Assembly: GCA_963774765.1 (NCBI GenBank)
Contig: CAVZGP010000010.1
Location: 177,282 to 201,281 of the forward strand
From: Ilumatobacteraceae bacterium
Lineage (GTDB): Bacteria > Actinomycetota > Acidimicrobiia > Acidimicrobiales > Ilumatobacteraceae
Length of the DNA stretch: 24,000 nt
Direction: 5' to 3'
The position numbers and the translations under genes are program-made. A model generated the notes under the pieces. The model saw only the letters and a list, made by a program, of their open reading frames with translations, was not told the origin of the DNA and did not search any database. Below are positions 4,698-21,340 of this stretch, piece by piece. Position 1 is the stretch's first letter. Each line of letters begins with the position of its first letter.

Positions 4698-4703
4698 CCG
4701 TTA

Positions 4704-4726
4704 CATCTGGGGTCTGACCCCTGGTG
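4704..4726. repeat. Palindrome of the GGGGTC(A/T)GACCCC family at a convergent gene junction; terminator-like position.
   Basis: The sequence is CATCTGGGGTC-T-GACCCCTGGTG, with 11-nt arms containing one mismatch and one wobble. It starts 7 nt after the FtsH-like stop (4697) and ends 14 nt before the stop of the convergent chaperone gene (4740). No T-tract follows it on either strand. Confidence 0.8.
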
Positions 4727-4739
4727 AAATCGCGCCGGC

Positions 4740-14710: not shown

Positions 14711-15538
14711 ATGAGCACACGTCCGATCGACCCGATTCGTCACGTCTCGAACGAGATGGTCCACGACTTCTCACGGGACGGCGTCACGGTGCTTCGCGGC
14801 GCGGTCGCCCCGACCTGGCTCGACCTGCTCGCCGAAGGAGTCGAGTACAACCGCACGCATCCGAGCCAGTGGTCGCACTGGTACACCAACCCCGACGAAG
14901 CCGTGGGTTTCTGGAGCGACTACGTCACGTGGCCGGACGTCGAGCAGTACCGGCGAGTGGTGTTCGACAGCGGACTCGCCGAGGTCGCCGGCCAACTGAT
15001 GGGTTCACGGACCGTACGGTTCTTCCACGAACACGTGCTGGTCAAGGAGCCCGGTGCCGCCGAGCCCACGCCGTGGCATCACGACGACCCCTACTACGGC
15101 ATCGACGGCATGCAGAACGTCAGCATGTGGATCGCGCTCGACGCGGTTCCTGCGTCGTCGGGACTGCAATTCATCGCCGGATCACATCTGTGGGGGCGTC
15201 GGTTCGTGCCGCGCAAGTTCATCGATCAGACCCCGTACGGCGAGGCCGACGAACGTTTCGAGTTGCTCCCCGACGGCGACGAGTTGGTCGGCGATCATCG
15301 ACTCCTGGGTTGGGACGTCGAGCCTGGCGACGTGCTCGCCTTCCACTACCGCACGTTGCACGGTGCGCCCGGCAACTCGCTGTCGACACCTCGACGAGCG
15401 GTCAGCCTGCGTTGGCTCGGCGACGATGCCCGCTTCGGTGAACGTCCCTGGACCACCTCGCCACCGTACGAACCGAGTGGTCTCGTGGTCGGCGGCCCGC
15501 TCGACGGCGACCCCCGCTTCCCCCTCGTCGTCAGCTGA
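14711..15538 (+). CDS. Phytanoyl-CoA dioxygenase (PhyH) family Fe(II)/2-oxoglutarate-dependent oxygenase.
   Basis: The sequence shows FSRDGVTVLRGAV, a facial triad candidate WHHDDPYY plus the distal His in YRTLHGAPGN, and RRAVSLRW (a 2OG-binding Arg context). A GAGGAG Shine-Dalgarno sequence lies 9 nt before the ATG. Confidence 0.8.
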   Translation: MSTRPIDPIRHVSNEMVHDFSRDGVTVLRGAVAPTWLDLLAEGVEYNRTHPSQWSHWYTNPDEAVGFWSDYVTWPDVEQYRRVVFDSGLAEVAGQLMGSRTVRFFHEHVLVKEPGAAEPTPWHHDDPYYGIDGMQNVSMWIALDAVPASSGLQFIAGSHLWGRRFVPRKFIDQTPYGEADERFELLPDGDELVGDHRLLGWDVEPGDVLAFHYRTLHGAPGNSLSTPRRAVSLRWLGDDARFGERPWTTSPPYEPSGLVVGGPLDGDPRFPLVVS

Positions 15539-15570
15539 CGTACACGATGTGCCAGAGGCCTCAGCGGAGC

Positions 15571-15721
15571 GGGAAACAGCGTCTCGGGACCCGAAGGAAT
15601 CACACGCCGCTGAGGTTCTCCCACCGATGAGCGAAGCGACCGGAGACGATCATCACAACCCACGAGATCCCCCGCTCATCGCAACGCCGACTTCCGCCCG
15701 ATCCGCTGAGACCCCAGGCAC
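15571..15721. repeat. Composite intergenic repeat, locus A: the conserved left and right flanks enclose one decayed hairpin unit.
   Basis: The left flank GGGAAACAGCGTCTCGGGACCCGAAGGAATCACACGCCGCTGAGGTTCTCCCACCGATGAGCGAA and the right flank GCTCATCGCAACGCCGACTTCCGCCCGATCCGCTGAGACCCCAGGCAC align base for base, with scattered substitutions, to the flanks of the array at 17548..17864. The internal unit has lost its right hairpin arm. Confidence 0.8.
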
Positions 15722-15760
15722 ATCTCGTACGTCGAGATGTCGTGCGGCCATGATGACGGG

Positions 15761-16702: not shown

Positions 16703-16707
16703 GTGTC

Positions 16708-16732
16708 ACGTCTGGGGTCAGACCCAAGATGT
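16708..16732. repeat. Palindrome of the GGGGTCAGACCC family at a convergent gene junction.
   Basis: The sequence is ACGTCTGGGGTC-A-GACCCAAGATGT, with 12-nt arms containing one mismatch and one wobble. It starts 6 nt after the NMO stop (16702). It also contains the stop codon and last 5 codons (GTSWV*) of the convergent nucleotidyltransferase gene. Confidence 0.8.
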
Positions 16733-17509
16733 ACCACTCTCGACGACGGCCTCGGTGAACGCGGCGGCGTCGAGGAGGTGAGCGCGGGTCGCCTGGCCAG
16801 GTGCTGCTCTGAGGTCGACCGCAGCGTGCAGCATGTCGGCGAAGTCTGGTGCACGGCGCGCAGCCCACCTCCCAGCCACCGACTTCGATGCCACGTCGCC
16901 GGTTTCCCACGTGTACAGCATTCGGGCGACACCGAGCGCCACCCATTCGAGCACGGCACCGTCGGCGGTCTCGCTGCTCGTGTCGGCCTCGATCGCCGAC
17001 GCCAAGCGTTCGCCGACACCTCGCCAGTAGGTCTGAAGGTTCTCGCGAACCCAGCTGCGCCGTTCACCGAGATCGATGTGGACGCCGAGACGGTCGGAGG
17101 CGTCGCCACGCAGCGCTACTCCGTACGTCGCAAACGTGTACCAGACGATCGGGTTGATCTCGAACGATTCGCCGTCGACGTGGTAGTCGCCGTCGAGCAC
17201 CCACGGCCGCTGCACCGCCATCGGCGCCACGACGAGATCACCCCACGCCACGTACGGACCATCGACAGCGATCGACACCTGCTCACGGACCCGTTCTTGG
17301 GCCGCCGCGAGGTCGCCGAACAGGTCCGGGTCGGATGGGTCGGCCACGACGGCGACGACGTCGATGTCGCTGTGTGGTGTCCAGTCGTCGAGCGCCACCG
17401 AGCCCACCACGTAGAGGCCCTCGACGACACCCGGCGCCACGTCATCGTGCGCGTCGAGCCAGGCAGCGAGTGCCTCGGCGACGGGGGCCGGCAAGAGCAC
17501 GGGTTCCAT
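16718..17509 (-). CDS. Nucleotidyltransferase-domain protein, AadA/ANT(3'')-like (aminoglycoside adenylyltransferase fold with a C-terminal helical domain).
   Basis: The Pol-beta-type NTase motif is GLYVVGSVALDDWTPHSDIDVVAVV. The 263-aa length and the C-terminal helical region (LEWVALGVARMLYTWETGDVASK) resemble AadA-type enzymes. The substrate cannot be inferred. Confidence 0.7.
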   Translation of the reverse strand: MEPVLLPAPVAEALAAWLDAHDDVAPGVVEGLYVVGSVALDDWTPHSDIDVVAVVADPSDPDLFGDLAAAQERVREQVSIAVDGPYVAWGDLVVAPMAVQRPWVLDGDYHVDGESFEINPIVWYTFATYGVALRGDASDRLGVHIDLGERRSWVRENLQTYWRGVGERLASAIEADTSSETADGAVLEWVALGVARMLYTWETGDVASKSVAGRWAARRAPDFADMLHAAVDLRAAPGQATRAHLLDAAAFTEAVVESGTSWV

Positions 17510-17547
17510 CGTGCGAAGTTACGCGGTGCCAGGGGCCGCAGGGGATT

Positions 17548-17864
17548 GGGAAACAGCGTTTTTCGGGACTCGAACGAATCACGTGCCGCTGAGAACCTCC
17601 CACCGATGAGCGAACCGACCGGATACGGCGGTTTCGCTCATCGCAACCCGCGAGAATCCCCCACCGATGAGCGAACCGACCGGATACAGCGGTTTCGCTC
17701 ATCGCAACCCGCGAGAACCCCCACCGATGAGCGAACCGACCGGATACAGCGGTTTCGCTCATCGCAACCCGCGGGAACCCCGACCGATGAGCGAACCGAC
17801 CGGATACGGCGGTTTCGCTCATCGCATCGCCAACTCCAGCCCAATCCGCTGACGCCCCAGGCAC
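17548..17864. repeat. Composite intergenic repeat, locus B: the conserved flanks enclose four tandem 61/60/60/60-bp hairpin units.
   Basis: The units start at 17601, 17662, 17722 and 17782. Each contains GATGAGCGAA-N18-TTCGCTCATC (hairpins at 17605-17642, 17666-17703, 17726-17763 and 17786-17823), joined by the near-invariant linker GCAACCCGCGAGAAyCCCCCACC. The flanks match locus A. The element ends 47 nt before the ettA ATG. Confidence 0.92.
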
Positions 17865-17911
17865 CGGCGCAACCACCCGCTCGCAACGGCGCCGTTAGCC
17901 TCGGGCCCACC

Positions 17912-19583
<1,672 letters not shown>

Positions 19584-19585
<2 letters not shown>

Positions 19586-20390: not shown

Positions 20391-21217
20391 GCAACGAACT
20401 CAGCGCCATCCGGTGGCAGGTCGAACACCGCGTCGCCACCGTGTGGCTGCATCGACCGCACCGCCACAACGCGTGGACCGGCACCATGCACACCGAGTAC
20501 CGCCAGGTGATGGCCGACCTCGAACACCGAGAGGACGTGCGCGTGGTCATCATCACCGGCACACCGCCGGCGTTCTGCGTGGGCGGCGACTCGAAGGCGC
20601 TGGAAGGCCACAGTGAACGTGGCGGCTACGACAGCGGACTGCCGCAGGAGCCCGCTCGCCCCGGCTGGGGTCCGGAGACCGACGAACGCCTCGACGCCGA
20701 CTTCGTGTGGCAGCTCGGCTATCGGCTGCCGATCATCGCCGCCGTCAACGGTGCGTGCGCGGGCGTCGGTCTGGCGCTCGCCCTGTGGTGCGACCTCCGG
20801 TTCGTCGCCGCCGACGCCAAGCTCACGACCGCGGCTGCCAAGCTGGGCCTACCCGCCGAGTACGCCATGAGCTGGATCCTCCCGCGCCTCGTCGGCGTCA
20901 CTCGCGCAAACGACCTCCTGCTGTCGAGCCGCGTCGTCACCGGTGCCGACACCGCCGACTGGGGGCTGTGGAACGGCGTCGAGCCCGACGGGGCTGCCAC
21001 GCTTACAGCCGCTCAGGACTACGGGCGTCTGCTCGCGTCCACCACCGGACCGACCGCGGTATCGACCACCAAGCGCCAGCTCACCGCCGACCTGCTCCGC
21101 CACGATCCCGCGACATCGATCGCGGACTCGCTCCACCTCCTCGATCGAGCGATGGGCACCGCCGAATATCGCGAAGGCGTGCGTGCGCTCACCGAGAAGC
21201 GGCCACCCAACTTCTGA
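20381..21217 (+). CDS. Enoyl-CoA hydratase/isomerase (crotonase) family protein.
   Basis: The crotonase fold pattern is present: VATVWLHRPHRHNAWT, VVIITGTPPAFCVGGD, PIIAAVNGACAGVGLALALWCDLRF and EGVRALTEKRPPNF. The start is uncertain: GTG 20381 or TTG 20387. The TTG would form a TTGA overlap with the cysQ stop. Confidence 0.82.
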   Translation: MGLSNELSAIRWQVEHRVATVWLHRPHRHNAWTGTMHTEYRQVMADLEHREDVRVVIITGTPPAFCVGGDSKALEGHSERGGYDSGLPQEPARPGWGPETDERLDADFVWQLGYRLPIIAAVNGACAGVGLALALWCDLRFVAADAKLTTAAAKLGLPAEYAMSWILPRLVGVTRANDLLLSSRVVTGADTADWGLWNGVEPDGAATLTAAQDYGRLLASTTGPTAVSTTKRQLTADLLRHDPATSIADSLHLLDRAMGTAEYREGVRALTEKRPPNF

Positions 21218-21230
21218 CGCGTCGCGTCCA

Positions 21231-21340
21231 CACGCCCCACCGATGAGCGAACCAACCGGATACGGCGGTTTCGCTCATCGCAACCCCAGCACACGCCCCA
21301 CCGATGAGCGAACCAACCGGATACGGCGGTTTCGCTCATC
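21231..21340. repeat. Locus C of the hairpin-unit repeat: two tandem copies with a 61-bp period and no conserved flanks.
   Basis: CACGCCCCACCGATGAGCGAACCAACCGGATACGGCGGTTTCGCTCATCGC appears twice, with hairpins at 21242-21279 and 21303-21340. The locus lies between the convergent crotonase (stop 21217) and CoA-transferase (stop 21362) genes. Confidence 0.9.

Follow-up and report, generated by a model that had tools for sequence, protein, structure and literature searches.

A tandem hairpin array upstream of ettA as a local cluster of a dispersed palindrome family of Ilumatobacteraceae, carried in a MITE-like element

We analysed a 24,000-nucleotide stretch of an Ilumatobacteraceae genome (contig CAVZGP010000010.1 of assembly GCA_963774765.1; this whole stretch is henceforth referred to as the window), in which four tandem 60/61-bp hairpin units lie immediately upstream of the gene ettA. 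We found that the same hairpin is dispersed over many genomes of the family, that it prefers the 3' ends of genes without strand bias, that it forms arrays with a 61-bp period, that it is absent from orthologous ettA sites, and that at this locus it is embedded in a miniature inverted-repeat transposable element (MITE). We consider it likely that the four units are a local cluster of a palindrome family dispersed through a clade of Ilumatobacteraceae, present here as cargo in an IS5-type MITE of about 360 bp, that members of the family act as 3'-end hairpins, and that the array upstream of ettA is a bystander.

Tandem Repeats Finder reported a single strong array in the window (17586..17826; score 427, period 60, 4.0 copies, 95% matches). 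Exact matches to the pattern GATGAGCGAA-N18-TTCGCTCATC start at 17605, 17666, 17726 and 17786, i.e., at spacings of 61, 60 and 60 bp, while the number expected by chance from dinucleotide shuffles of the window is 0.00. The four hairpins (17605..17642, 17666..17703, 17726..17763 and 17786..17823, all on the plus strand) are arranged head-to-tail, and each consists of a stem that is perfect over 10 bp and an 18-nt interior of the form CCGACCGGATAC[G/A]GCGGT (unit 1 reads GATGAGCGAA-CCGACCGGATACGGCGGT-TTCGCTCATC; the interiors of units 2 and 3 end in ATACAGCGGT). The linkers between them are 22 nt long (22–23 nt) and near-identical, with 1–2 positions differing. This agrees with the architecture given in an initial annotation of the window, namely four tandem units with periods of 61, 60 and 60 bp, 10-bp stems, 18-nt interiors and near-identical linkers. 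All four units were also found with a covariance model of the hairpin (R1); unit 1 scored 67.4 bits, although this copy is itself part of the R1 training alignment. Folded as single-stranded DNA (ssDNA), a single unit reached -19.2 kcal/mol on either strand, with z about -5 (-5.0 for unit 1), and the RNA fold of the whole array region gave z = -8.2 on the plus strand and -5.0 on the minus strand.

A dispersed palindrome family

To find further copies, we scanned one genome per species with the exact-stem pattern, such that loci were recruited by their stem sequence. The exact-stem hairpin was found in at least 112 stretches, and the matches listed include about 35 Ilumatobacteraceae/Acidimicrobiales metagenome-assembled genomes (MAGs); about six of the listed matches, with aberrant loops and from outside these taxa, are chance matches. 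The recruited loci together with the window (865 kb) hold 185 hairpins in 125 clusters, of which 75 are single, 43 double, 4 triple and 3 quadruple. As many as 114 of the 125 clusters fall outside gene calls, and the period is 61 bp in 45 of the 60 pairs of neighbouring hairpins. The initial annotation had taken the array for a nucleic-acid-level element that was neither coding nor CRISPR and might be a BIME/REP-like repeat of variable copy number, and the dispersal of the unit over at least 112 places in arrays of one to four bears this out. A CRISPR array was also rejected on its own terms: the linkers are 22–23 nt long and near-identical, as opposed to unique spacers of about 26–40 bp.

When copies are oriented by their asymmetric interior, the family consensus reads CCCCCC-AGC-GATGAGCGAA-CCG[A/C]CCGG-AT-ACGG..-T-TTCGCTCATC-GC, the hairpin being preceded by a C-rich tract (5') and followed by a weakly G-rich one (3'). 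The stem is near-invariant and often extends to 12 bp through flanking GC..GC, i.e., (GC)GATGAGCGAA / TTCGCTCATC(GC); a recurrent stem variant, GATGAGCCAA, carries a C.C mismatch. Cells of the stem are paired in 97.7% of cases and five pairs are invariant, a figure that is partly circular given that copies were selected on the stem. Compensated variants of the core stem are rare, being limited to two copies in one relative (locus L115) and one in another (L114, at 3606), and a reversed-sequence control gave 9. We therefore regard the stem as conserved as a sequence, with covariation not shown. A covariation check had been proposed in the initial annotation; the stem is kept, and compensatory changes are scarce.

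By contrast to the stem, the 18-nt interior is hypervariable, and it usually prolongs the stem around a central NATN. A single symmetric stem running through the interior was considered and rejected, as in a fixed register just 56% of cells pair. Given that pairing registers differ between subfamilies, we folded interiors sequence by sequence; compared with shuffled interiors they had a mean z of -1.1, with 28% of them below -2. Interior identity is 0.90 inside an array; across different sites of the same assembly it drops to 0.76, and across assemblies to 0.58, which is the pattern expected from within-genome spread or concerted evolution.

We found no strong copies in the two more distant loci L129 and L130 (21.7 kb each; EttA 90–92% identical), and hence regard the family as limited to a clade. 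A search for a phage origin gave 0 exact matches in the viral_contigs set. Long complementarity between the flanks at a few loci, L103 among them, raised the possibility that an earlier terminator hairpin had received the present hairpin in its loop. We rejected this: each hairpin's own flanks paired at 5.90 of 14 positions, compared with 5.65 for permuted flanks.

The initial annotation recognised no named RNA family in the array, and no Rfam family reached its gathering score anywhere in the window (Rfam 15, with an additional E-value scan of the array region). The best Rfam match, Chloroflexi-1 (RF01698), has in common with the units a hairpin that follows, on the minus strand, a stretch resembling GGGUUGCG. 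We rejected it as a chance-level match: it scored 22.3 and 21.1 bits against a gathering threshold of 80, at E about 0.1, and its core stem differs. The hammerhead ribozyme was rejected as well. The stem of every unit (17605-17614 in the first) contains GAUGAG and CGAA, but these are contiguous, with no stem II, and the hammerhead is absent among the five Rfam matches at E <= 10; we take the resemblance to its core as coincidence.

The MITE-like element and orthologous loci

The array lies inside a MITE-like element of about 360 bp (17514..17874, limits approximate to a few bases; henceforth copy B), delimited by its arms, by ends shared with other elements and by its absence from orthologous loci. 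It consists of a left arm (17514-17604), the four units, and a right arm (17824-17874). Inverted-repeat search and alignment of ends placed a left terminal inverted repeat (TIR), CGGTGCCAGGGGCCGCAGGGGATTGGG, at 17524..17550 on the plus strand and a right TIR, CCCAATCCGCTGACGCCCCAGGCACCG, at 17840..17866 on the minus strand; these are 27 nt long and 85% complementary. A 197-bp paralogue (copy A, 15537..15733; TIR of 37 nt, 84% complementary) lies 2 kb upstream of the array between PhyH-like and NMO-like genes, and its alignment to copy B shows arms 81–86% identical. Copy A is an insertion, as the PhyH|NMO gap measures 222 bp in the window and 16–62 bp in the related loci L113, L114 and L116. 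It has two internal hairpin units of its own, both damaged by deletion (~15626-15690) and visible as a weak R1 match (18.3 bits at 15618-15692). A third hairpin-bearing MITE copy was found in L064, a locus of the MAG with the hairpins most similar to those of the window.

Neither copy A nor copy B encodes a transposase. When metagenomes were scanned for the right-end motif, ten loci were recovered, three of them informative. In L117 and L119, the same ends enclose hairpin-free elements of 150–165 bp, and in L122 they enclose a complete insertion sequence (IS) of about 960 bp with a 280-aa transposase, which matches Pfam DDE_Tnp_1 and, with 117.6 bits against a required 110, the NCBIfam model NF033580 'IS5 family transposase'; its match to DUF4096 is sub-threshold. 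Alignment of the ends showed GTGCCWGGGGC..CAGCGGAT.GGG to be common to copy A, copy B and the L122 IS. The 360-bp and 197-bp elements thus resemble IS5-family MITEs in that their TIRs align with those of L122, L117 and L119, they are non-coding, they occur at several unrelated sites, and at least one copy in the window is an insertion relative to orthologous loci. They differ from them in carrying an internal array of an unrelated palindromic repeat and in having no direct target-site duplication.

As a separate observation, a short copy-specific inverted repeat borders each IS/MITE copy just outside the conserved TIR (L122, 251-1245; L117, 130-300; window, 15537-15548/15722-15733 and 17514-17523/17867-17874). 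In L122 the border reads CCGGCCCAAGACGACTT | AAGTCGTCATCGGCCGG and starts directly after a stop codon. Such borders may reflect either insertion into the centres of palindromes or concerted evolution of the element ends.

The window holds a second hairpin site 3.4 kb downstream of the array, with two units at a period of 61 bp (21242..21340, plus strand; exact matches at 21242-21279 and 21303-21340, also detected with R1). It sits between the convergent stops of an enoyl-CoA hydratase (ECH) gene, ending at 21217, and a CoA-transferase gene, entered from 21362. MITE arms are absent from this site and from the other hairpin clusters, which is why we regard the MITE as the vehicle at the ettA locus and not as the general carrier of the family. 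A search of related genomes for the unit, as suggested in the initial annotation, did reveal dispersal and varying copy number; what that annotation had overlooked in the window itself were the second site, the damaged copy and the MITE.

To examine the locus in relatives, we used EttA homologues with 96–98% identity, which gave four syntenic loci (L113–L116). The array upstream of ettA is absent from all four, and also from L129 and L130. In the window, the codon-usage gene caller places it between a minus-strand nucleotidyltransferase gene and ettA. At the same spot, L113, L115 and L116 have a gene for a 165-aa flavin reductase (Flavin_Reduct; compared interval 9414-10000 in L113), and L114 has a 57-aa remnant of the flavin reductase together with an inserted GGDEF/EAL gene; the flavin reductase gene is missing from the window (17510-17911) and from L130. 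The intergenic spot between the nucleotidyltransferase gene and ettA is a rearrangement hot spot, and the MITE-like element here occupies the place of the flavin reductase gene that is present in three of the four close relatives. An apparent similarity of the array flanks to flavin reductase remnants was rejected, as it corresponds to the MITE arm and is common to copy A. On the ettA side, blastn homology of the window (to L113) reaches only 23 bp before the ATG. The locus is a case of a palindromic array as cargo of an IS5-type MITE, with the native upstream regions of two genes displaced.

Placement relative to genes and a candidate role

Considering 104 clusters that lie outside gene calls with called genes on both sides, we found 38 in convergent, 49 in co-directional and 17 in divergent gaps. 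The corresponding expectations are 15/69/20 by gap number (p = 2e-9) and 13/56/35 by gap length (p = 1e-13), meaning that convergent gaps are enriched 2.5-3x for hairpin clusters. The distance from the stop codon to the start of the array has a median of 23 nt (interquartile range 12–37). No strand bias was apparent: within co-directional gaps, 23 clusters are in sense and 18 in antisense orientation, which argues against a function on one RNA strand.

Comparison of individual convergent gaps between relatives shows how such positions are occupied. In the window as well as in L113, L114 and L115, hairpins are present in the ECH|CoA-transferase gap, in versions that differ. The two copies in L113 belong to the same subfamily as those of the window, and the two in L114 share only about 40% interior identity with them. 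In L115 (13412-13540) there are two sibling hairpins of the form CGGTGAGAG-N-CTCTCACCG, with compensated stem changes (GGTGAGAG/CTCTCACC), which hints at further subfamilies invisible to an exact-stem search. The PMI|GcpE convergent gap contains a four-copy array in L114 and an unrelated 20-bp GC hairpin in L115, a swap that is consistent with functional equivalence as 3'-end hairpins without proving it. Separately, the FtsH|aldo-keto-reductase convergent gap gave weak R1 matches in L113 (1052-1115, 21 bits) and L114 (3594-3656, 13 bits); these are long hairpins that keep just the GATGAGT/ACTCATC half of the stem, and in the window the gap has an unrelated small hairpin (4698-4739).

These placements suggest how the family may work. 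At most sites the palindrome follows closely on a stop codon, where it would fold into a stable hairpin on the transcript of either strand, and could thereby terminate the mRNA or protect its 3' end from exonucleases. A conserved factor, encoded by the host or by the element, may recognise the invariant stem, units may move to new sites (with hitch-hiking in a MITE as one route), and arrays may grow by local tandem duplication of the 61-bp unit. To our knowledge, high-GC Actinobacteria largely lack canonical U-tract terminators, and for this reason a conserved hairpin about 20 nt past stops is a candidate 3'-end mark in high-GC genomes, and could serve as bait for the factor that reads it.

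The closest parallel from the phylum is TRIT ('Tuberculosis Rho-independent terminator'), described in passages of Gardner et al. 2011 as a motif confined to Mycobacterium, with about 147 copies that lie close to the ends of genes and are mostly bidirectional (PMC3152330). In the same passages the authors inferred that a factor binds the conserved stem (PMC3152330), and our suggestion of a stem-recognising factor parallels theirs. Judging from these passages, the two families have in common a stem-loop from high-GC Actinobacteria that is conserved in both sequence and structure within one lineage. TRIT is, however, centred at about -8 relative to the stop, inside the coding sequence, whereas the units described here start at a median of +23; its sequence differs (as judged without a base-by-base comparison with the TRIT consensus) and the host here is Ilumatobacteraceae. 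Tandem arrays, present here, are not mentioned in the passages on TRIT (PMC3152330). The Rfam scans gave no match to TRIT, the presence of a TRIT model in Rfam being unchecked, and we found no description of the present hairpin family in the literature.

Several points weigh against the reading of the array as part of a family of mobile 3'-end hairpins. The role in termination or stabilisation is inferred from position only, and the context statistics depend on our own codon-usage gene caller. Divergent gaps, with 17 of the 104 clusters, come close to what is expected from gap number. A terminator scan of 17400-18000 gave 0 sites; there is no U-tract, the 3' flank of the family being G/C-rich, so that a canonical intrinsic terminator was rejected, and intrinsic termination in mycobacteria is reported, in passages of one study, to need a U-tract (PMC3993855). 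Recruiting loci with the exact-stem pattern makes the apparent constancy of the stem in part an artefact of the search, and 22% of interiors fold no better than shuffles, meaning that the inner stem is not strictly maintained. As for mobility, neither the two copies in the window (A and B) nor L117 or L122 showed a direct target-site duplication, and hairpins entering a MITE and a MITE forming around hairpins are indistinguishable from these data.

We also considered a more specific, and in our view doubtful, version of the 3'-end hairpin proposal. According to it, the near-invariant 12-bp stem (GCGATGAGCGAA/TTCGCTCATCGC), retained in dozens of species as the interior changes freely, would be the site of a dedicated protein, either a hairpin-specific termination or 3'-processing factor or an actinobacterial equivalent of a domesticated RAYT-like enzyme, and the 61-bp units would represent a lineage-wide, factor-dependent form of punctuation for transcription units that lack a U-tract, one that IS5-type MITEs could also mobilise. 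Two features merit follow-up most: a stem that stays constant in many species, and the short inverted repeats, specific to each copy, at the borders of the IS/MITE copies.

Alternative explanations and the surroundings of ettA

The most serious alternative is that the family is a true system of repetitive extragenic palindromes (REPs) and REP doublets forming hairpins (REPINs), in which a REP-associated tyrosine transposase (RAYT; HUH/Y1), encoded by one gene per genome, recognises the stem on ssDNA and spreads the units. The resemblance to REPs and bacterial interspersed mosaic elements (BIMEs) of Enterobacteria and Pseudomonas, with their RAYTs and REPINs, is considerable: both are short, GC-rich, imperfect palindromes with many extragenic copies, concentrated past gene 3' ends (as for enterobacterial REPs) and in convergent gaps, clustered, and divided into subfamilies that differ between genomes. 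The invariant stem likewise speaks for such a system, and its conservation across species would fit co-evolution with a vertically inherited protein. However, when the roughly 1 Mb sampled was searched by tblastn with E. coli RayT, no match had an E-value below 1.5, a weak negative that does not cover whole genomes. Clustering of neighbouring genes, over the same roughly 1 Mb, found no gene family that recurs beside the hairpins, and open reading frames bracketed by hairpins look like ordinary metabolic genes from inspection of their translations, without a family search. REP-linked RAYTs of groups 2 and 3 have been described from Enterobacteria and Pseudomonas (PMC5581495), whereas the host here is actinobacterial (Acidimicrobiia). 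Units in REP/BIME systems are inverted or alternating; those of the present family are direct, head-to-tail repeats with a fixed 61-bp period, and just 3 clusters show mixed orientation. A 5' tetranucleotide of the GTAG type is absent, the flanks being CCCCCC-A-G-C (5') and G-C (3'), and a conserved stem, shared by about 35 species-level MAGs among the matches listed, encloses a hypervariable interior. We thus consider a true REP/REPIN system unlikely. As an intergenic palindrome, the family resembles both REP/BIME and TRIT elements, yet it departs from each of the two in the features by which membership is recognised. It adds such a palindrome family, found neither in Rfam 15 nor in the literature searched, from a clade of uncultured soil Acidimicrobiia.

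Alternatively, the repeat could be a double-stranded DNA site for a dimeric regulator or a nucleoid-associated protein, with the arms as inverted half-sites and the hairpin as an incidental consequence. Such a site would account for arms that are conserved in sequence with almost no compensatory variation (most variants being one-sided), for the fixed 18-nt spacer and 61-bp period, and for the imperfect interior pairing in a fifth of copies. But copies lie just past stops and are enriched in convergent gaps rather than at promoters, interiors are on average more self-complementary than shuffles, and the sibling variants in L115 and L114 retain the complementarity of the stem. Moreover, the centres of the half-sites are 28 bp apart, which is no integral number of helical turns. 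On balance, we give this explanation little credence.

A structured RNA in the ettA leader was among the possibilities raised by the initial annotation. As an explanation, it holds that EttA expression is tuned by the array as a cis-regulatory element, located either in the 5' leader or in the divergent promoter region. A distance of 88 nt separates the end of the last hairpin from the ettA ATG (17912), the predicted structure of the array is very stable, and other ABC-F genes are often under leader attenuation. Nevertheless, the array is missing at the locus in the four close relatives and in L129 and L130, identical units occur between convergent stops elsewhere, and the family lacks a strand bias (23:18). 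Furthermore, the array is inside a transposon-like element, and relatives share only one conserved block upstream of ettA, TAGCCTCG (17896..17903, plus strand; 10 nt from the ATG), which is situated downstream of this element and outside it. This block, which is included in the 23 bp of homology to L113, is invariant in all ettA orthologues examined, L130 included, while the spacer around it varies. From its sequence, it is a putative -10 element (TANNNT, actinobacterial) of a short-leader ettA promoter, in which case the array would be located upstream of the -10 box and not in the leader RNA, making it probably a bystander. The comparative data thus largely refute the leader reading, which we consider very improbable, and the array should be annotated as a repeat or mobile-element feature rather than as an ettA riboregulator.

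Finally, a neutral minisatellite that arose in place, with its likeness to other loci irrelevant, would be in keeping with recent slippage or duplication (array units are 95% identical) and with copy numbers that differ between loci, but as a stand-alone explanation it is refuted by the dispersal data and has next to no chance of being correct, given that over 100 unlinked sites in many species carry this unit, that their placement is non-random, and that interiors have diverged where the stem has not; local amplification already belongs to the favoured explanation.

Turning to the neighbouring genes, ettA itself (17912..19585, plus strand) encodes 557 aa; its translation is 98% identical to the database homologue P0001, and some homologues are named EttA by their sources. 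The divergent nucleotidyltransferase gene (16718..17509, minus strand; AadA_C/NTP_transf_2 in orthologues) starts close to the MITE, about 5 bp separating its start codon from the left end of that element. We also noted an open frame of 960 codons on the plus strand (16703-19585), which crosses the antisense strand of the nucleotidyltransferase gene and the array and continues into ettA. Codon usage does not support it, and it should not be annotated as a long N-terminal extension of ettA; some EttA homologues in databases are listed at 572–744 aa, compared with 557, and are possibly similar over-extended calls.

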